From Klebsiella phage KPN8, in the sequence record OP079919.1: a DNA stretch of 64,000 nt; one strand, 5' to 3'. The notes under the pieces were generated by a model. The model was not told the origin of the DNA and did not search any database. It worked only from the letters and a program-made list of their open reading frames with translations. Position 1 is the stretch's first letter; every line of letters begins with the position of its first letter. The translations under genes were made by a program, and so were the position numbers. This document shows positions 3,709 to 25,242 of the stretch, in pieces.

Positions 3709-4029
3709 ATGACGTACAATGAAGTCGAGAAATATCTGGAAATGGGAGAGGCCGTCTCTAGGCGTAGTTGGAAAGCGAACGAAGCGGTTTATTTAGAGCC
3801 GACGACGTTACTTAATCCAGCGCACTATCCTGAGTGTTTAAAAGCCGCAGGTATTAACTCCCTTTTGAGAGTCGATCGACATTTAGTGCGTGTTACCGCG
3901 AGTAACACTGTTGAGCGTTTTATTCCCAACTTTGTAGAAAGAAACGAAAACGATTGGTACGTTAAAAGTTATACCTTCGAACAAAATAAAGCATTACCAG
4001 AACATAATCAAGCACAAGAAGTCGCATAA
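3709..4029 (+). CDS. DUF2829-like protein (Tad2-like candidate)
   Basis: N-terminal MTYNEVEKYLEMGEAVSRRSWK fits the DUF2829 N-terminal signature (F/Y-x-E-A/V-x-x-x-L-x-x-G-x-x-V-x-R-x-x-W). C-terminal FIPNFVERNENDWYV fits the DUF2829 C-terminal W/F-x-P-S/N-x-x-D-x-x-A/N-x-D-W-x-V signature. Confidence 0.55.
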   Translation: MTYNEVEKYLEMGEAVSRRSWKANEAVYLEPTTLLNPAHYPECLKAAGINSLLRVDRHLVRVTASNTVERFIPNFVERNENDWYVKSYTFEQNKALPEHNQAQEVA

Positions 4030-4034
4030 TAACA

Positions 4035-4045
4035 CCCCCCCCCCC
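4035..4045. repeat. C11 homopolymer tract
   Basis: Eleven consecutive C read directly. Intergenic, between the stop of 3709..4029 and the terminator hairpin. Confidence 0.9.
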
Positions 4046-4060
4046 TACACTTAGATTTTA

Positions 4061-4089
4061 ACCAGGAGAGGCGTAAGCCTCTCCTGGTT
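4061..4089 (+). terminator. rho-independent terminator (ACCAGGAGAGGC-GTAA-GCCTCTCCTGGT) plus TTATTTTA
   Basis: 12-bp perfect inverted repeat followed by a T-run. Confidence 0.65.
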
Positions 4090-7692: not shown

Positions 7693-8046
7693 ATGAAGAA
7701 AATGAGTACATTTCTGTTAGTTGTATCCGGCTGGTTCGCTCTGTCTATTATCTGTGTCGCTGGCTACTCCTTCGTAAGAGAGGGGTGGAAAAAAGAAGAT
7801 CTCTCTTGGTCGGAGTTTATTAAACAAAGCACGATCTGCGCTAACGTCATTAAAGACAAAGCGGCGCATAAACCTCACGATGTGACTCTGGGGGATTTCT
7901 TAAGCTCCGAAGAAGTTAAACCCTGGTTAAAAGGTTTTGACTACGACGTTGAAGAGAAAACCGATTCTTACGTTATTACGTTGAGAACCCCGGCGCACGC
8001 AAGAGATTTCCTGTTACCACGACAGTTGTTTCCTAATGCCGCATAA
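7693..8046 (+). CDS. hypothetical membrane-anchored protein
   Basis: N-terminal TM segment TFLLVVSGWFALSIICVAGY. SD AAGGATGAAG upstream. Confidence 0.5.
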   Translation: MKKMSTFLLVVSGWFALSIICVAGYSFVREGWKKEDLSWSEFIKQSTICANVIKDKAAHKPHDVTLGDFLSSEEVKPWLKGFDYDVEEKTDSYVITLRTPAHARDFLLPRQLFPNAA

Positions 8047-8052
8047 AACAGT

Positions 8053-8103
8053 ATAGTCCATCCCCTAGGGGATGGACTATACTCAACATTTCATTTTTTT
8101 TTT
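8053..8103 (+). terminator. rho-independent terminator (TATAGTCCATCCCC-TA-GGGGATGGACTATA) followed by a T10 run
   Basis: 14-bp perfect inverted repeat, then TTTCATTTTTTTTTT. Confidence 0.75.
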
Positions 8104-8195
8104 CACTAACGAATTTTATGCTTTGAAAACCGAGTATGTGGGACGCCGCATAAACGTAATCATACATGTATGCTTATTGGTGAATAGAGGACGCT

Positions 8196-10076
8196 ATGAC
8201 CACACCAACTCAACTACCGATACCCAGTAGCAATTTGCTGGATTCGAGATTTAACTTTGAGAAGTTAGACCAGATAGTAAACTCAGATGCCGATTTCTAT
8301 TTGGACCGTTTTGGCAAACAACGTCTTACCGTTTTGGGCGCCACCAATCAGCTCATCCAAAGCCTGAAAGATCAAACTGGTGCCAACAATGTAACCTACG
8401 TCAAATCCAAGGTGGATAAAGTACTGTCATCGATAGGGTATTCCCTTGACGTCATTCCAATGAATATCTTTGACAAGGCTTATTTGTGTTCGGGAACTGA
8501 CAACCCAGATCCTAATACTTGGATCTGGACCGCCGCCCTGCAGGGCGTTTTATCGGATATCGCTTCTTATAAGCTTTTTACCCTCAACGGAAATGACTAT
8601 TATACAACTTTCTCCCTACGAATACCTGGAGGGGTTTATCAGATCGACGATCTGGTTAGTTTGGGTAAGGTAGCAGGGACTGGAGGAGGAGCATCCTTTA
8701 GGACCAACATCGTTATCAACGGAGATGGAAAAAGCAGTTCGGTTCTTCGTCTTATAGGTGATGATAAACAATTGTTTAAATTCACAGAAAGCCGTTTAGT
8801 CATGAGGGATATAGGGCTTCAAACTAACGGGGCTCGTAACATAGGGATGGAATTAGGCGATCAAAATAATTGGGTCCCGATGGCCCACTCCCATCTTGAC
8901 AATGTTTCGATTACCGGATTTTGTCGCGGATTGCTAATAAGCCATTGCTTTGACAGCACGTTCGATTCTTTATTCATATCCGAGATAGCCGATACGGGTA
9001 ATGCGGTTATACCCGCTACCGGTATTGAAATTGCGCAGTTTTTAGGAAAAGATTCCTCTAACAATCCAGATAACTCTAACCAACTGACGTTTATTAACTG
9101 TGTAGTTGAGACGGCTAGGACCGATAACGCTATTTTGTTTTACGTCAACGGAATTAGTAAAAGTTATCCCCACCACGCCATCAACTTCTTAGGTGGGCAC
9201 CTGGAAACCCATAGACGGAACACGGTCTGTTATAAATTTAACAACATGGCCCTGTCAACCTTCACAGGAGTGACATTCAGTCAGAACGGCACTGATTCTA
9301 CTAACCCTGTAAACGTTGGGGTAATAACTGACTCCTGGAATATTATCTTTAATGGCGGAAGAACAGTAACCAATAATGCTAAAAACACTTACGATGATAC
9401 TTGGGATAAATTGATAACCGTAGCGGGATCTAGCATGGGGATCACGTACATGAATCATCATTTTATTACCCCATACCAGACGTATTCTTCGTATAACCGT
9501 AATGCCAACACCGTGTTCAATTTTACCGGGGCGACCGCGGGAATAAACGCCATCGATGCCGATCGCTGTAGATTGAACGACTTCACGTTCAAGCCGTTCA
9601 CCAAATCTATAGAAATAACCAGAATGGATTTGATTACTCAGCGTTTCAGGATATCCGTAAACACTTCTGGTAGTCTGGTTTTCGCGTACTCTAATGATGT
9701 TACTGGCGCCGCCGCTATGACGGATTTGGTAACCATCACCAATACAGGGAATGCGACTTTTCTTGGGTCCGTTACGGCAACTAACGTAACCGGGACGTCC
9801 GATGAGAGGTTAAAAACAGAAATAGGAGAAGTTGATCAAGTTTTAATTGATGTTGTTAAAAGTCTACGGCCTAAGAAGTATCGACTGAAAAACGACCCCC
9901 AAAACAAAATTAGAGTGGGATTCATCGCCCAAGACCTAATAGAACTTATGGATAAAGCTGGATTGGATTTCAAGAAATACAGTATTATCGCAGAGTTTAA
10001 TATTCCTGGGGATGATTCAGAAAACACGTATTATTCCTTGGACTATGATGAAATAATGTTGTTAAGATCCTTGTAG
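8196..10076 (+). CDS. tail spike/fibre protein 1 with conserved N-terminal anchor and C-terminal intramolecular-chaperone (S74-like) domain
   Basis: Its N-terminus MTTPTQLPIPSSNLLDSRFNFEKLDQIVNSDADFYLDRFGKQRLT is shared with eight other genes in this window. The C-terminus DERLKTEIGEVDQVLIDVV...GFIAQDLIEL...YSLDYDEIMLL matches the auto-cleaving chaperone domain known from endosialidase-type tail fibres. Confidence 0.8.
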   Translation: MTTPTQLPIPSSNLLDSRFNFEKLDQIVNSDADFYLDRFGKQRLTVLGATNQLIQSLKDQTGANNVTYVKSKVDKVLSSIGYSLDVIPMNIFDKAYLCSGTDNPDPNTWIWTAALQGVLSDIASYKLFTLNGNDYYTTFSLRIPGGVYQIDDLVSLGKVAGTGGGASFRTNIVINGDGKSSSVLRLIGDDKQLFKFTESRLVMRDIGLQTNGARNIGMELGDQNNWVPMAHSHLDNVSITGFCRGLLISHCFDSTFDSLFISEIADTGNAVIPATGIEIAQFLGKDSSNNPDNSNQLTFINCVVETARTDNAILFYVNGISKSYPHHAINFLGGHLETHRRNTVCYKFNNMALSTFTGVTFSQNGTDSTNPVNVGVITDSWNIIFNGGRTVTNNAKNTYDDTWDKLITVAGSSMGITYMNHHFITPYQTYSSYNRNANTVFNFTGATAGINAIDADRCRLNDFTFKPFTKSIEITRMDLITQRFRISVNTSGSLVFAYSNDVTGAAAMTDLVTITNTGNATFLGSVTATNVTGTSDERLKTEIGEVDQVLIDVVKSLRPKKYRLKNDPQNKIRVGFIAQDLIELMDKAGLDFKKYSIIAEFNIPGDDSENTYYSLDYDEIMLLRSL

Positions 10077-10080
10077 TTTG

Positions 10081-10160
10081 GGAAATTGGGGGCGTATTTT
10101 TAACTAACGTACCATAACGTCCCCCCCCCACTCCAATTTAGTCAAACAAAGGGTGTTATG
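10081..10160 (+). repeat. conserved ~80-bp upstream element, copy A, containing a C9 tract (10121..10129) inside an inverted repeat AATTGGGGG / CCCCCAATT
   Basis: Aligns along its length with 22505..22580. Both copies end in ...AGTCAAA(C/T)AAAGGGT...ATGATGAC, the start of a tail-spike gene. Confidence 0.8.
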
Positions 10161-12299
10161 ATGACGACTCCAACTAAGAACGACATTCCAAGCAATAATT
10201 TGTTGGATGCTCGTTTTAACTTTGAAAAGCTCGATCAGATTGTTAATAGCGACGCGAACTATTACCTTGATCGATTTGGTAAACAACGACTCACTTCGGC
10301 CGGATTGGAAGATTTAGCCAGACGATTATCTGAAGATTATGAATCCACCCTATCTAATCAGGATGGGTATAAGAAAATGGGGATGGTGTCTGATTTTACT
10401 ACTCTCAGAACTATCGCCCCAACAATGGAAGGTCAACGCATTCTGCTCAGGTCGGTTGACGCTGGTTCGAATAATGGATCGGGAGAGTTTATAGGACATT
10501 TAGGGAGCAATGGGGTTGACGACGGGGTTAATGTCGCGGTGGGATCCAACTTCTATTGGGAGAGGCTTTCGACTGATTTTGTTAAATCTTCTTCTATAGG
10601 TGATTACACTCGGATTAACTCCTTTATTTCAGCCGGAAATAAGAAGATCACTGTCGATGCCGATCTCAGCGGGTGGCTTAACGTCAAAAGTAACACCACG
10701 ATAACTTTTAACCCATTGTGTCGGCTGATACCTGATACCGATGACAAAGTCGGCATAAGTATTAGAGGAGCCGCCCCAACCTCCTATGTTAATCTAGCTA
10801 CTGATGCATTAGGGATAGATGGCTCAATTACCACCACTAATGACGTTTTTAACATTGGTGATTGGCTGGAAATTAGATCCAACAAGGTTCTTCCCGGCGC
10901 GAATTTTTATCAGGTTAAGCAATCTGTTTTACGCAAAGTGCTTCGTAAAACACAAAATGGAAATGGAACTTGGACATACCGTCTCCACAGTAGTTTAGGT
11001 TATAACTTTAACGTCAGCGACGGTGCTTCCGCTGGGGTTGCGACAGTATTGGAAAATATTGTTATCGATGGGGCTAACTTAAATAAAGACAATTTCACCA
11101 ATATCTTCACCATAGGGATAAACTGTTATTACGTTTATAACCTCACTATAAAAAATATCAACCTATTCGGAACAAAAGTAAAGGATTCTGCCTCAGACAC
11201 TCCAGGAAGATCCGGAATAAAACTGTATAATTGCGTTAACGTTAGAATCGATAATGTGAACGCCTCTTATATAGGGTGGTATGGTGTAGAGGTTATGGGA
11301 TGCAGTGAAAACGTAGATGTAAATCGTTTATACGGTGTGGATTGTCGACATACCGTTTCCATGAACTGGATCGAATCTGGCGACCTTTATGGTGGGCCTA
11401 TGTGGGTTTCGGTAAGGAACTCAGCAAGTCACGCTGCAAGATTAAGTGGGTTTGACACTCATGATCTAGGAAAGGGGATCGCATTTATTAATTGCCAGAG
11501 TTTCGATTCTGGTGATGATGGATTCCAAGTAAGGGCGATGGACACCGTTCTAATCGATTGCCATGCTGAAGGATCGACACTTGATGGCTTCGGCGGCGCT
11601 ACTGGCGCAAAGAACAGCAAATTAGTAAACTGTTCTTTCAACTACAACGTCAGATACGGAATTAATTTAGGTTATGAAGGCGGTATTGTTATCGACTGTG
11701 ACGTCGATAATAACGGTTACATGGGGATTTGTACCATCGGCGGACTCATTCAAGGAGGGTCGGTCACCAATAATTATCCGGCTGCTATCGATATAGGCGC
11801 CGGATTTAATGCCGCCCAAACCGATCTCAAAATCGATGGTGTTAGAATGCCCTCTTCGACCGCCCAGACAAAAATTTTGAGTTTTGCTGGTGACGCGGTA
11901 GCCGCTAACAACAAACCTGAGTTGGTTAGAATGGAAAATTGTTACGTTCCTGGTTACGGAAGAGATTGGGTCAGACTGGTATCGTTCACCGTCCAACCTT
12001 TACCCCCGGTGCTTAATAATAATCTACTTACTTCCAGCTTAACCTCCCCTGGAAAAATAAGCGGGCAAGTCCAATTATCTGCAGGGACAGCCACGGTGAC
12101 AACCACAGAGGTTTTCTCACAACTTGGTAGCGGTGCAAATGTTTTAAAATACTCATCGCAGATTAAGTTGAAACCTATCGCTCGTTCTGCCAATATAGGC
12201 GCTCATTATGTTTCAGCAATCAACAACGGGACGTCCTTTGTAATCAATTCAACCAATTCCTCGGATGGCTCGACCATTTATTGGGAAATAACACTTTAA
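10158..12299 (+). CDS. tail spike protein 2 (right-handed beta-helix depolymerase-like)
   Basis: Conserved N-terminus MMTTPTKNDIPSNNLLDARFNFEKLDQIVNSDANYYLDRFGKQRLT. Repetitive N/G/V-rich beta-helix-like segments (NVRIDNVNASYIGWYGVEVMGCSENVDVN). Confidence 0.75.
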   Translation: MMTTPTKNDIPSNNLLDARFNFEKLDQIVNSDANYYLDRFGKQRLTSAGLEDLARRLSEDYESTLSNQDGYKKMGMVSDFTTLRTIAPTMEGQRILLRSVDAGSNNGSGEFIGHLGSNGVDDGVNVAVGSNFYWERLSTDFVKSSSIGDYTRINSFISAGNKKITVDADLSGWLNVKSNTTITFNPLCRLIPDTDDKVGISIRGAAPTSYVNLATDALGIDGSITTTNDVFNIGDWLEIRSNKVLPGANFYQVKQSVLRKVLRKTQNGNGTWTYRLHSSLGYNFNVSDGASAGVATVLENIVIDGANLNKDNFTNIFTIGINCYYVYNLTIKNINLFGTKVKDSASDTPGRSGIKLYNCVNVRIDNVNASYIGWYGVEVMGCSENVDVNRLYGVDCRHTVSMNWIESGDLYGGPMWVSVRNSASHAARLSGFDTHDLGKGIAFINCQSFDSGDDGFQVRAMDTVLIDCHAEGSTLDGFGGATGAKNSKLVNCSFNYNVRYGINLGYEGGIVIDCDVDNNGYMGICTIGGLIQGGSVTNNYPAAIDIGAGFNAAQTDLKIDGVRMPSSTAQTKILSFAGDAVAANNKPELVRMENCYVPGYGRDWVRLVSFTVQPLPPVLNNNLLTSSLTSPGKISGQVQLSAGTATVTTTEVFSQLGSGANVLKYSSQIKLKPIARSANIGAHYVSAINNGTSFVINSTNSSDGSTIYWEITL

Positions 12300-12357
12300 C
12301 CTTTGCTGGATGGTGATTGGTCGACGCCGGTCTAAAACTAATTTGTTAGGGTCATTT

Positions 12358-12391
12358 AAAATCCAACCGGTCTTAAGACCGGTTGGATTTT
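12358..12391 (+). terminator. rho-independent terminator (AAAATCCAACCGGTCTTAAGACCGGTTGGATTTT)
   Basis: Perfect palindrome with a T-run, immediately downstream of the stop of tail spike 2. Confidence 0.7.
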
Positions 12392-12433
12392 ATGCTTACC
12401 GATATTTCAACCTTCCTGACCCGAGGAATAGCA

Positions 12434-18696: not shown

Positions 18697-18703
18697 TAAT
18701 TAT

Positions 18704-18735
18704 TACTCCTTCTCCGGTTAACCGGAGAAGGAGTA
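18704..18735 (+). terminator. hairpin TACTCCTTCTCCGGTT-AACCGGAGAAGGAGTA
   Basis: 16-bp perfect palindrome after the stop of spike 5. A second hairpin, AGACTTGCGCAAGTCT, follows at about 18772. Confidence 0.55.
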
Positions 18736-18821
18736 ATAGATACGTCCGATTTTATGCTGATCTAAATTCAGTAGACTTGCGCAAGTCTTTTATACTACAT
18801 TCTTTTTAAAGGAGTAACCTC

Positions 18822-20711: not shown

Positions 20712-20764
20712 TGGTGAGCTAGGGGAGGGGGCGCCCTCCTCCCTTATTTATGAGGTTTCTAAAA

Positions 20765-22480
20765 ATGACCACGCCTACCAATAATGACATTCCGAGCAGT
20801 TCGGTACAAGATAGGTTGTATAACGCCGAGAAATTTGATGAATTCATGAATTCATCGAACACTAATTTCACTGATCGCAAAGGAGTTTCACGATGGACAC
20901 TAAGCGGAATCAGAACTGTTATAAGTAACTGGATGACGAGTCTGAGTAGCAATGCAGGCGGAAACACCATAAAGGTCGATAATGCGCTACTACCAGACTT
21001 GGACTATGCGCCGAGCATTTTTAGATTTATGACCGACGCAGATATCGATTCGATGAAGAACACTCTGGGTAGCGAAGTTCCTGTCGATTACGCCTTACAA
21101 GCAGTTATCGATGCCGGTTATAAGTCAGTCAGATTCCCCCACAACGTTAAGGGCATCTATATTCTTTCTGGGTTGGTAACACTCCCTTCAGCCTTCACAA
21201 TCTTTGGAACGTGTTCCAAACCATATAGTAGTATTACCGACTCTTCCTTCTTAAATAAAGGGGTGACTTTACGTAAAGCCGTCGGGGCGGATTATCTGTT
21301 CGGAGCCGGTTCGGTATTCAGAATTTATGGGTGTAATCTAGATGGAAGAGACAACCTTCGCCCTCTAATCAACCAGACCAATCAAATACGCGGCGGAATA
21401 TTAGAAGATTGCGGGATCTACCGTTTTCTTTATGGAGTCGGGAGTTATGGTTACACCTCTATTGTTGTTAAACGATCATCCATTTGTTCAAATAACATAG
21501 GAATAAGGAACCTTATCGACAGCCGTATTATGGACGTTACCCTCAATGCCAATAAAGGTAACGGGGTCGATAACCAGGTCGGGGCCAATAATAATATTTT
21601 TGAAAACGTCAGGAATGAATGGAATGAAGGGATAGGGTATTATTTTTATGGGTCGGTGGGGAACATCATTACTGGTGAACTTATTGATAGATCTGGTTCG
21701 GCCAATGTTGTCGTCCTGGCCGGTGGATCCGCATTGATTTCAGGGGTTATCTCCCAACGACCCGCTCGTACGTTGAGTGAGGACTCAAGTTATAACACTC
21801 ATTTCTATGTGGCCGGAAGTAAATCAAAACTTTGTTTATCCGGTGTAACTACGGCAACGGGCATTGACGACGGGGGTACCGGAACTTTAACGCCACAAAG
21901 GACAATCGTGATAGGCGGGACGAATACCGACGTGACCGTTCTTTCTAGCGGGTGCGATTTATCGGGAAGTATTCTCTCGCCGTTAAGATTCGACGTTACT
22001 CCAGCTACGGTAGGATTTAGAAACAATATTGGCGTTGACGACTGGGTTAACACCGGGCAATATCAGTTCATCAAAGGAAGAGCGTCGATCGGTAGTCAGA
22101 AAAATGCGGTGATCTTGGCCAGTGGTGTGGGGAGTACCGCGACGTTAGTTTTTGATAACACAGGGTTCGTCGACCCCACTTCTAATTTCCCCGATATACC
22201 TAAGAAACGAAAAATTATCATAGAAAGCATGACTTCGGTATCGGCTTCCAGAACTGTAGGTTTTTATGAAGTTTCGTTATTGACCAGGCGTTTCTCTAGC
22301 ACTGCCGGTTTTGATGTCTTACAGGAAACATCTTATCCTGCTGGAGCGTGGGCGCGGACTACCGCAACTGGTGTTTCTATAAACATTGCCCTCTCAGCGG
22401 ACGCCAAACAGATAACAGTTACGCTAACCAACGTAGATGGCGTCGGAAGATTTATAGATGCTGCTCTTAAGTGGGATTAA
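20765..22480 (+). CDS. tail spike protein 7
   Basis: Start at MTTPTNNDIPSSSVQDRLYNAEKFDEFMNS. Full-length diverged paralogue of spike 8. Confidence 0.7.
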   Translation: MTTPTNNDIPSSSVQDRLYNAEKFDEFMNSSNTNFTDRKGVSRWTLSGIRTVISNWMTSLSSNAGGNTIKVDNALLPDLDYAPSIFRFMTDADIDSMKNTLGSEVPVDYALQAVIDAGYKSVRFPHNVKGIYILSGLVTLPSAFTIFGTCSKPYSSITDSSFLNKGVTLRKAVGADYLFGAGSVFRIYGCNLDGRDNLRPLINQTNQIRGGILEDCGIYRFLYGVGSYGYTSIVVKRSSICSNNIGIRNLIDSRIMDVTLNANKGNGVDNQVGANNNIFENVRNEWNEGIGYYFYGSVGNIITGELIDRSGSANVVVLAGGSALISGVISQRPARTLSEDSSYNTHFYVAGSKSKLCLSGVTTATGIDDGGTGTLTPQRTIVIGGTNTDVTVLSSGCDLSGSILSPLRFDVTPATVGFRNNIGVDDWVNTGQYQFIKGRASIGSQKNAVILASGVGSTATLVFDNTGFVDPTSNFPDIPKKRKIIIESMTSVSASRTVGFYEVSLLTRRFSSTAGFDVLQETSYPAGAWARTTATGVSINIALSADAKQITVTLTNVDGVGRFIDAALKWD

Positions 22481-22504
22481 GTAGCTAAATTCCTTATTAG
22501 TAGT

Positions 22505-22580
22505 GGAATTGGGGTGTTTTTAACCAACTTACCATTGTCTTTTGCCTCCACCCCAATTCAGTCAAATAAAGGGTTCAATG
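22505..22580 (+). repeat. conserved upstream element, copy B (no homopolymer; CCTCCACCCCAATT)
   Basis: Aligns with 10081..10160. Confidence 0.8.
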
Positions 22581-24311
22581 ATGACCGCACCGACTAATAA
22601 CAATGTACCGAGTAGCTCGGTTCAAGACAGATTGTACAATGCTGAAAAATTCGATGAATTTATGAATTCGGATAATCCCAATTATACCGATCGTAAGGGG
22701 AACTCCCGCTGGACTCTGAATGGGATAAGAATAGCCATATCCAATTGGATGACGTCATTGGGTACGTCAGTCGGGTCAGCCTATATTGGTAAAGGAAACG
22801 ATACTGTATCCAATCTTTTAGAGGCCTCCATCACTGAATATCTCACCGCTGAAGATCAAAATACACTCAGAAGTTCGTTGGGGGCGGAAGTCAATGTAGA
22901 TTATGCTTTAAAGGCAGCGATCGACGCAGGTATTCTCCGATTAAGATTCCCTAGGATGATAGGGATTTATGTTCTGGGCGCCGACCCTGTTACCCTTCCA
23001 ATAGGCTTTTCTATGGTCGGGGATAGAACCAGGTTATATACAGCGCCTTCCGATTCTACCTTTCTTAACAAGGGTACTGTGCTAAGATTAAGTTCCGGAG
23101 CCTCTTCGCTGTTCTTGTTAACTCAAAAGCATCAGTTTAGCGGAATTAATTTCGATGGCCGTGATAAAACGGTTAACTTAATGAAAGGAGCGGACCAAAC
23201 TCAATTCTGTAGGTTCTATAATTGCGGAATCCATCGATGGTTAAACGGATTGGGCGGATCTTCTTCAGGCGGATATACGGCTACACTTTCAGTATCTTTT
23301 TGTGATATTTCTGGAAATTATCGGGGCGTGCGTAATCTTATCGATTCCAAAATATCGGATAGTACCATTAACGCCAATGACACCAATGGGGTCGAACTTA
23401 ACGTAGGCGCCAATAACAACGTCTTTATTAATGTCAGAAACGAATGGAACAATGGCGTTAACTACTACGGGTATGGGGGTAAGCGCAACATCGTCGTCGG
23501 GGAGCTATGCGATCGAGCCGGACTCAACGGAATTGTTGCTGCGGGAGGCGCCCAGTGGTCCCTCGAAGGAGTGAATGTGCAGCGTTCGGGCAGGCTCGCC
23601 ACCCAGGGATCTGTCGACGACGCCCATTTCTATGTGACTGGTGAAGGATCATCTATCATAATGAGCGGAGTTTACACAACTCAAGGCTCTGACGATACAG
23701 GGGGTGGGAGAGTCTCCCCGTCGTACACTCTGGCTGGTGGAGGAAATTCATCTGACACGAAAACATTCTCGGCCGTGAACAGCGTCTTGAGCGGATTTGG
23801 GGTTTCAGCGATAAGACCTGGGTCCTCCACTTTCTCTAATATGAGCGTTGTGGGTTGTAACGGCTTTTACGATAGAATATCCGGAAACACAATAAATTTC
23901 TACGAAGGAAACTTCTCTTTGGGGAAAAGGGCTTCGTCGTTGAGTTTAAGTGGAACGGGTTCTACGGCACAGATCACATTCCCTACAACAGACTCGTTTC
24001 CGCAATACAGGGTGGGTTTTACCAGACAGTTGCATATAACAGCTAGGAACAACATCAATACGGGATCGGTCGCTTATTACAACGTCCCGCTATTCTTTTA
24101 TAGAGAACAATCGACCGCCGTTGTGCGAGCGAATACAAGTAAAGAAGAAACAATGGTGACCCTCAGCGGAGGAACTTGGGGTTTAACCGCGGCGTCCCCG
24201 ACCGGGGTCGCTATTGACCTGGCGGTTTCTTCTGATGGCCTGACGTTAACCGTAACGCTGACAGCCATCGATAACTCATCAAGAATCATTGATGTGGAAC
24301 TGAGGGCTTAA
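22578..24311 (+). CDS. tail spike protein 8
   Basis: Start at MMTAPTNNNVPSSSVQDRLYNAEKFDEFMNS, matching the position of spike 2's start within the conserved element. Confidence 0.7.
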   Translation: MMTAPTNNNVPSSSVQDRLYNAEKFDEFMNSDNPNYTDRKGNSRWTLNGIRIAISNWMTSLGTSVGSAYIGKGNDTVSNLLEASITEYLTAEDQNTLRSSLGAEVNVDYALKAAIDAGILRLRFPRMIGIYVLGADPVTLPIGFSMVGDRTRLYTAPSDSTFLNKGTVLRLSSGASSLFLLTQKHQFSGINFDGRDKTVNLMKGADQTQFCRFYNCGIHRWLNGLGGSSSGGYTATLSVSFCDISGNYRGVRNLIDSKISDSTINANDTNGVELNVGANNNVFINVRNEWNNGVNYYGYGGKRNIVVGELCDRAGLNGIVAAGGAQWSLEGVNVQRSGRLATQGSVDDAHFYVTGEGSSIIMSGVYTTQGSDDTGGGRVSPSYTLAGGGNSSDTKTFSAVNSVLSGFGVSAIRPGSSTFSNMSVVGCNGFYDRISGNTINFYEGNFSLGKRASSLSLSGTGSTAQITFPTTDSFPQYRVGFTRQLHITARNNINTGSVAYYNVPLFFYREQSTAVVRANTSKEETMVTLSGGTWGLTAASPTGVAIDLAVSSDGLTLTVTLTAIDNSSRIIDVELRA

Positions 24312-25152: not shown

Positions 25153-25158
25153 GTCCTA

Positions 25159-25192
25159 ATAACTCCTATTCCCTTATCGGGAATAGGAGTTA
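25159..25192 (+). terminator. terminator hairpin TAACTCCTATTCCC-TTATCG-GGAATAGGAGTTA plus TTTTAAAC
   Basis: 14-bp stem. Member of the ACTCCTA...TAGGAGT hairpin family. Confidence 0.75.
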
Positions 25193-25242
25193 TTTTAAAC
25201 GCGCCACGGCCATTTATGAACTTTTCATAAGAGACTGTAATC

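Follow-up and report, generated by a model that had tools for sequence, protein, structure and literature searches.

A family of small intercistronic hairpin elements in the RBP gene clusters of Miamivirus-like Klebsiella jumbo phages

The spike gene cluster

The DNA considered in this work, referred to below as the window, is a stretch of 64,000 nucleotides from Klebsiella phage KPN8 (sequence record OP079919.1). KPN8 is a Miamivirus-like Klebsiella jumbo phage; the closest annotated genomes are those of phiKp_32, YC1 and Miami (genus Miamivirus), followed by those of Raoultella phage VB_ZK_P1 and BUCTxx100. Between a conserved gene of 117 aa and phoH, the window contains eight tandem genes on the same strand, s1 to s8, which start at positions 8196, 10158, 12383, 14681, 16555, 18822, 20750 and 22578. 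According to Pfam and PHROG, all eight encode tail spike or fibre proteins, and each opens with a related N-terminal anchor (PTxxxIPS...D..FN.EK.D...NS), the variants of which are positional and are conserved across related phages. The element described here occurs twice in this cluster, between s1 and s2 (copy A) and between s7 and s8 (copy B):

8196..10076, plus strand, s1: 626 aa, with a Peptidase_S74 C-terminal domain and a type-1 N-terminal anchor; 5' of copy A
10061..10166, plus strand, full extent of copy A: 104.1 bits, E 1.6e-17 with covariance model R1
10158..12299, plus strand, s2: K1-lyase-like depolymerase with a type-1 anchor variant and an MMT start; 3' of copy A
20750..22480, plus strand, s7: phrog_6518, with a type-6 anchor; likely true start 20765; 5' of copy B
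22484..22586, plus strand, full extent of copy B: 97.3 bits, E 3.4e-16 with covariance model R1
22578..24311, plus strand, s8: phrog_6518 paralogue of s7, with a type-6 anchor variant and an MMT start; 3' of copy B and followed by phoH

The genes downstream of both copies are thus tail-spike or fibre genes by both Pfam and PHROG, as the initial annotation had proposed. Within each pair the anchors are of the same type, with 38/45 aa matching in s1/s2 and 50/60 in s7/s8. Two anchor types are therefore duplicated in KPN8, which suggests that two different spikes compete for one docking site. The s1 protein matches "putative tail fibre protein [Klebsiella phage KPN8]" with 100% identity, and PhoH falls in a protein cluster that also contains its KPN8 counterpart; an exact-protein look-up of s1 and s2 returned no record, and a BLAST search of the s1 body against the phage collection gave zero matches. 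The longest open reading frame of s7 starts at 20750 (MRFLKMTTPT...), and the conserved anchor start MTTPT at 20765 is probably the true one.

Perfect terminator palindromes are found at other junctions of the cluster (8050-8083, 12357-12392, 18701-18738, 20722-20741 and 25158-25194). In addition, three of these junctions have the exact motif ATTTTATGCT, which occurs three times in the 64 kb, always on the plus strand (8113-8122, 12387-12396 and 18749-18758). These sites only head spike units, before s1, s3 and s6, and are kept at the same places in relatives, and the motif may act as a phage promoter or belong to a terminator-promoter module. A similar motif, TTATTTATGAG, lies upstream of s7. 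A T10 run is present 5' of s1 (8094-8103), and is T10 or T11 in related phages.

The junctions of A and B carry neither a terminator palindrome nor ATTTTATGCT, and a scan of the sequence found no promoter-like or terminator-like signals at either copy. Since the usual terminator palindrome is missing there, each copy most likely lies within a polycistronic spike mRNA, and from the absence of these signals we infer the operons s1-A-s2 and s7-B-s8-phoH. A candidate TTGGGG...TACCAT pair can be read from the sequence, but its spacer of 15 to 18 nt differs between the copies. The conserved loop TTTTTAACTAACGTACC was considered as a general phage promoter and rejected: it occurs in the window only in A and B, contains no sigma-70-like site, and is inverted in one of the related copies (copy H, see below). 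The literature on N1M2 was also considered as a guide; this phage is OBP-like, its promoter motif is a different one, and the comparison was uninformative here.

Homology and layout of copies A and B

The initial annotation held that two stretches, at 10081..10160 and 22505..22580, are alike from end to end. This is borne out, with an extent slightly larger than had been noted. In their intergenic part the two copies are identical at 65/96 positions, and their local-alignment score is 79, compared with 20.7 +/- 3.6 (maximum 35) for random segments of the window; the scores of R1 given above agree with this homology. No third copy was found by R1 in the 64-kb window. The parts of the two copies are as follows:

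10066..10076, plus strand, lead of copy A: the last s1 codons TCC TTG and the stop codon TAG (10074-10076)
10083..10092, plus strand, 5' arm of copy A, AAATTGGGGG: read from the sequence; inner helix (helix 3) of the consensus structure
10093..10120, plus strand, loop of copy A, type I, CGTATTTTTAACTAACGTACCATAACGT: also in copies B, C, E and I, and inverted in H
10121..10129, plus strand, C9 homopolymer of copy A: C18 in the orthologous copy (L162 9952-9969)
10130..10139, plus strand, 3' arm of copy A, ACTCCAATTT: pairs with the 5' arm
10140..10157, plus strand, tail of copy A, type I, AGTCAAACAAAGGGTGTT: contains the SD AAGGG at 10149-10153; the s2 ATG is at 10158
22506..22516, plus strand, 5' arm of copy B, GAATTGGGGTG: exact inverted repeat with the 3' arm
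22517..22548, plus strand, loop of copy B, type I: placed by sequence alignment
22549..22559, plus strand, 3' arm of copy B, CACCCCAATTC: 11 perfect pairs with the 5' arm
22560..22577, plus strand, tail of copy B, type I: contains the SD AAGGG at 22569-22573; the s8 ATG is at 22578

In the lead of copy A, the bases TCCTT at 10068-10072 are complementary to the downstream SD. The inverted repeat that had been assigned to each copy is exact in B, but that of A is imperfect and consists of AAATTGGGGG/ACTCCAATTT rather than CCCCAATT; the arms of A form 9 pairs, one of which is G.U. The difference in the homopolymer had been described correctly: C9 occupies exactly 10121-10129 in A, and the aligned positions of B read TTTGCCTCC, followed by ACCCC.

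Further copies in related phages

Twelve more occurrences of the element were found in seven related phages or assemblies. These relatives were reached only via protein look-ups in Logan, ENA and NCBI; DNA scans of IMG/VR, JGI metagenomes and GTDB genomes with four patterns gave nothing, or chance matches in unrelated MAGs. The occurrences are as follows:

Copy A2, L162 9909-10000: orthologue of A, on an ENA contig
Copy C, phiKp_32 and YC1: truncated, 5' half only
Copy D, L127 ~11870-11975: 3' of the s1 orthologue (83% aa)
Copy E, L130 946-1053: precedes the last spike ahead of phoH; the sample is common to D
Copy F, YC1, L126 10619-10700: separates two type-4-anchor spikes
Copy G, L131, L157 and L158: short arms
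Copy H, L156 2378-2487: separates two type-1-anchor spikes
Copy I, YC1, L126 19694-19595, minus strand: followed by an SD and a 4-codon stub, ATGACATCTTTTTAA

Each complete copy is flanked by two RBP genes of the same strand, and the truncated copies C and I precede only a relic gene. In all occurrences, the end of the 3' arm is 18-23 nt from the downstream ATG. Taken together, A and B are members of a small, previously undescribed family of intercistronic hairpins in the RBP clusters of Miamivirus-like Klebsiella jumbo phages.

A search for the element upstream of spike genes in related phages had been proposed as a check. It does recur there, as the twelve occurrences show, but many spike genes and clusters are without it. 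When about 40 spike upstream regions from six phages were scored, only A, B and the relic C rose above the null, and the ~37 others lack the element. It was not found in the sampled regions of Miami, ZK_P1, BUCTxx100, L128/129, L132/133, L159-161 and L163/164, and it is missing from roughly half of the related spike clusters sampled. The idea of a general leader for spike genes is thus not sustained, since most spike genes do without it. The same distribution, together with the decayed or truncated appearance of C, G and I, indicates that the element is dispensable.

The loss in copy C can be traced to a deletion between two GCCTCCA microhomologies, which took out the 3' half of the element together with the SD, start and anchor of a short gene; this short anchor gene is still intact in ZK_P1. 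The loci concerned are L001 28717-28800 (phiKp_32), L126 16896-16990 (YC1) and L124 19495-19995. ORF1340 of phiKp_32 is the leftover 3' part of the short anchor protein that is intact in ZK_P1; its reading as a spike C-terminal remnant was rejected because it has no similarity to any spike C-terminus. Copy I of YC1 lies downstream of a minus-strand tail-fibre gene, and its stub ATGACATCTTTTTAA is a 4-codon relic of an anchor-type gene.

Variation of arms, loops and tails

The conserved part of the element is the pair of arms, AAATTGGGG and CCCCAATTT, and the loop, the 3' tail and the orientation of the core are mosaic. A type I loop is found in A, A2, B, C, E and I; the loop of D is unrelated, and those of F and G are short. 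The tail is of type I (AGTCAAAYAAAGGGT) in A, B, D and H, and of type II (TTAACCTGAnnnGGAAT) in E, F, G and I. Thus, the loop is swapped between A and D and the tail is swapped between A and E, with the arms kept in each case. The leader proximal to the RBS of the type-2 anchor gene, TTCAACCTTCCTGACTTGAGGAATAGCAATG (window 12396-12433), resembles tail type II, TTTTAACCTGAGTAGGAAT...ATG, so that spike leaders share a short common module despite their differing hairpins.

In copy H the whole core is inverted and the orientation of the tail is unchanged: R1 matches its minus strand, and its reverse complement matches copy C at 43/49 positions, with no forward alignment. The core therefore works, or at least persists, in both orientations, which excludes any role resting on the loop sequence of the mRNA.

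In the arms themselves some pairs have been exchanged by compensatory changes, a G-C for a C-G pair in F and a T-A for a C-G pair in H. Their G and C runs also differ, being G5/C9 in A, G5/C18 in A2, G4/C4 in B, and G10/C6AC4 in D and E.

RNA structure

Folding of both leaders had been proposed as a check on the hairpin, and in this respect the result was negative: folded alone, A and B have z-scores of +0.23 and 0.00 against dinucleotide shuffles, that is, no extra stability. More generally, A, A2, B, G and H have z-scores of about 0 to -1, whereas D, E and F are more stable than their shuffles, with -38, -45.7 and -27.1 kcal/mol and z = -2.8, -4.2 and -3.3, respectively. Support for the hairpin thus comes from the other copies only.

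For the nine copies aligned with RNAalifold, the predicted consensus consists of three coaxial helices: an outer helix between CCTT of the lead and AAGG of the SD, a middle helix of 3 bp, and the inner stem. In this structure 85.2% of cells are paired, compared with 79.3 +/- 1.5 in shuffles (reached by 0/500), and at most 67.7% are paired in controls slid along the sequence. There are 8 pair changes on both sides, a number equalled in 7/500 shuffles, and the covariation is 0.319 versus 0.207 (0/500 shuffles); note that these covariation statistics are weak because only nine copies are aligned, several of them closely related. About 21 of the 138 paired cells are G.U. Since G.U pairs become mismatches on the other strand or in DNA, they point to an RNA of the sense strand, and together with the covariation they favour a stem-loop in the mRNA.

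The element had originally been interpreted as a conserved structure in the 5'-UTR. What holds is a stem-loop ahead of the SD with covariation above both shuffled and slid controls; what does not is the 5'-UTR of a separate transcript, since the element is an intercistronic spacer within an apparent operon. Rfam gave no match at the gathering score in the whole window, and only chance-level matches around A and B (E >= 0.46).

Pairing of the SD and a possible coupling mechanism

In copy A, the SD is predicted to pair with TCCTT (10068-10072) with a probability of 0.93-0.94, and the duplex between lead and tail has an energy of -11.3 kcal/mol, compared with a null of -5.5 +/- 2.2 (p ~0.011). 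The SD core of D and E is also predicted to be mostly paired (P = 0.80 and 1.00), its main partners adjoining the upstream stop codon, and the lead/tail duplex exceeds that of random leads (p 0.002 in D and 0.013 in E). In B, F, G and H the duplex is no stronger than chance would give (p 0.30-0.81). The coupling model described below therefore fits copy A and some others but not the whole family. The SD pairing probability itself was dropped as a discriminator because the predicted pairing is equally high, 0.37-0.96, at the RBSs of control spike genes that are free of the element.

Our preferred reading, which we hold tentatively and at somewhat less than even confidence, is that the element is an mRNA stem-loop that tunes expression of the downstream spike, with coupling by SD occlusion in copy A and some of the others. 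The conserved arms AAATTGGGG... and ...CCCCAATTT would form the stem-loop in the polycistronic spike mRNA, and this would set the yield of the promoter-less downstream spike relative to that of the upstream spike. In A, A2, D and E, the hairpin would bring the last codons of the upstream spike (TCCTT, beside the stop) onto the downstream SD AAGGG. This SD would stay blocked until the helix is opened by a ribosome that completes the upstream gene (translational coupling) or the rod is cut by a nuclease. In copy B, which has no outer helix, the hairpin alone would act, for example as a barrier to decay or as a weak transcription stop. The G and C runs of the arms are prone to slippage, and their lengths drift between relatives. 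The homology, the positions, the conserved and covarying arms, the difference in tract length, the core inversion and the predicted pairings are what the analysis demonstrates; co-transcription, any effect on expression and the coupling itself are what we infer.

The cytosine run

It had been suggested that the C run makes expression of s2 phase-variable in the phage population. The tract does differ between relatives, being C9 in A and C18 in A2, in sequences that are 96.7% identical across 2.75 kb. This indicates that tract length is unstable, although homopolymer assembly error may contribute. C9 also exceeds the length of at least ~8 nt at which homopolymers slip. It is one of only two G/C runs longer than 6 in the window, the other being C11 at 4035-4045. 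The latter is intergenic as well, between the stop of the ORF 3709-4029 and a terminator hairpin at 4060-4089, and the orthologous site has C10, C11 or C12 in phiKp_32, BUCTxx100, ZK_P1, YC1 and Miami, so that the tract is conserved and its length variable.

A reversible switch of s2 by slippage of the run is consistent with these differences, with the rarity of such runs in the window, with the second variable run in five relatives, with the G10 runs of D and E, and with the hypermutable tracts documented in phages (PMC12633550). However, the C9 run is 29 nt 5' of the ATG and outside any ORF or recognisable promoter, so that its slippage cannot shift a reading frame, and the scan found no promoter elements flanking it. 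When the tract was varied in simulations from C3 to C20, pairing of the SD with the lead stayed at 0.87-0.97 and the MFE remained within ~2 kcal/mol, so that no on/off switch is predicted. Moreover, B does not have the run, B and C having TTTGCCTCC in its place, and part of the difference between assemblies may be homopolymer sequencing error. Thus, hypermutability of the tract is supported and an expression switch is not; we consider such a switch very unlikely.

Alternative explanations

The main alternative to a regulatory stem-loop is that the element is a passenger or recombination joint, a spacer that travels with exchangeable spike cassettes and has no regulatory role. The palindrome would then be kept or remade by template switching at the inverted repeats, gene conversion of the arms, and slippage of the G/C runs. 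In a windowed comparison of KPN8 and phiKp_32, which we used to place the crossover, the two phages differ by one indel of 1965 nt that runs from codon ~21 of s1 through element A to codon ~20 of s2. This stretch, the rest of s1, the element and the first ~20 codons of s2, has its crossover within the conserved anchor-coding sequence. The indel is in keeping with a passenger or joint; the crossover also tells against the joint, because it lies in the coding anchor and not in the hairpin. The element usually occurs where an extra spike duplicates an anchor type (s1/s2, s7/s8, the type-4 pair of YC1 and the type-1 pair of L156). Its mosaic segments (loop I/II, tail I/II and the inverted core) are bounded by the ends of the arms, its distribution is sporadic and includes relics (C, by the GCCTCCA deletion, and I, with its 4-codon stub), and the fold z-scores of A and B are near 0, all of which is consistent with a passenger. 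On the other hand, selection on RNA pairing is indicated by the compensatory changes and by G.U pairs that are specific to one strand, the spacing to the start codon is kept constant, and the arms persist even where the sequence between and beside them has been replaced. On balance we regard the passenger model as rather unlikely, but as an explanation to be taken seriously. In a further reading, the palindromes would be spike-cassette joints that mark and promote insertion of an extra RBP gene beside a resident gene with the same baseplate anchor, and the hypermutable G/C arms and invertible core would vary between virions the ratio of two spikes competing for one docking site. This we consider highly doubtful; if true, jumbo phages would have a non-coding means of hedging their bets on host range.

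Two other explanations retain a role in the mRNA but differ in its nature. As a leaky intrinsic terminator (attenuator), the element would reduce transcription into the distal spike gene. It lies between genes, where other junctions carry terminators, and has a GC-rich stem between A and T tracts (AAATTGGGG...CCCCAATTTT) like the bidirectional terminators of the phage, most clearly in E and F; TTTT follows the stem in E, F, G and I. However, the loops of copies with intact arms are 17-43 nt long (28-37 nt in A and 32 nt in B), compared with ~3-8 nt for a short terminator loop, and exceed what a classical terminator allows. The stems of A and B are followed by no more than 2-4 U (CCAATTTAG and CCAATTCAG), and the 2-3 T of the post-stem sequences (CCAATTTAGTC in A and CCAATTCAGTC in B) are themselves part of the stem rather than a U run. 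In addition, the terminator scan was silent at A and B and their hairpin stability is not above chance, so that we judge termination distinctly improbable. The remaining explanation is an RNase III-type processing site, at which cleavage of the rod separates the spike cistrons and frees the downstream SD. The intercistronic position, the predicted occlusion of the SD in the uncut form, and the ~18-28 bp that the three coaxial helices with their internal loops total in A, D and E would suit such a site. By contrast, the paired region is just 7-13 bp in B, F, G and H, which is short for RNase III, and there is no Rfam family match; we give this explanation little credence.

The element is of practical interest. 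Among the candidates for phage therapy are Klebsiella jumbo phages that carry many depolymerase spikes, and the choice and relative amounts of the spikes produced determine which hosts they can infect. The element sits exactly where an extra spike joins one with the same anchor, and thus offers a concrete handle on the expression of added spikes without a new promoter. Its ends are also natural limits for spike swaps by engineering. With the C9/C18 and G10 runs it can be tested simply whether phage host-range loci contain non-coding hypermutable tracts. Even if inert, the element would remain useful as a marker of cassette boundaries.

Relation to known systems

Coupling by SD occlusion is exemplified by the coat-replicase pair of MS2 and by the ribosomal-protein operons of E. 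coli. The element is similar in that, for A, A2, D and E, the predicted partner of the downstream SD is either the last codons of the upstream ORF or the bases just past its stop. Unlike in the known cases, the partners are ~80-110 nt apart and are joined by a large hairpin, and the pairing is missing in B, F, G and H. At the intercistronic RNase III sites of T7, hairpins can stabilise the upstream message and activate downstream translation. There too, conserved and repeated hairpins lie between the cistrons of polycistronic phage mRNAs, but several stems of the element are too short for RNase III, and there is no sequence similarity.

The REP/BIME-type extragenic palindromes of enterobacteria form hairpins that, in REP elements, affect the relative stability of the mRNA segments beside them. 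Like them, the element is a short, imperfect intercistronic palindrome in operons, occurring sporadically and in either orientation. It differs in that its sequence is unrelated, it is confined to the RBP clusters of phages, where each sampled genome region has 1-3 copies, and it has a long loop and homopolymer arms, with no RAYT-type transposase implicated. The marks of a mobile palindrome of the MITE or REP kind, many dispersed copies with terminal inverted repeats and a target-site duplication, are not seen together: there are only 2 copies in 64 kb, all copies are in RBP clusters, and no duplicated flanks are visible. phiKp_32 contains an IS200/IS605-family TnpB insertion (L001 ~7725-9116) that is absent from the orthologous site of KPN8 (near 2474/2475); a link between this insertion and the element was considered and rejected, the covariance model being silent at the insertion ends.

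Hypermutable homopolymers and contingency loci have been documented in phages (Gomez et al. preprint, PMC12633550). The element shares with them long G/C homopolymers beside host-range genes, the length of which differs in close relatives (C9 versus C18); unlike those loci, in which frameshifts occur inside ORFs, its tract lies between genes, and nothing predicts a change in expression. The polyG tracts of Campylobacter phages are a further phage contingency case. The element has inverted repeats and occurs in both orientations across phages, as a fimS-like switch would, yet the segment is only ~35 bp and the scan found no promoter in it.

In the PeSLs of T4-type phages, a terminator stem-loop is joined to an early promoter that is strong and sigma-70-like (Arbiol et al. 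2010, PMC2839356). As with PeSLs (PMC2839356), the element consists of repeated intergenic stem-loops in the most plastic part of the genome, tied to the gain, loss and shuffling of genes. Unlike in PeSLs, no promoter was found in A and B, and the genes concerned are late structural ones. The stem-loop is present and the mosaic breakpoints fall at the arm ends, but the documented crossover, that between KPN8 and phiKp_32, lies in the adjacent anchor-coding sequence.
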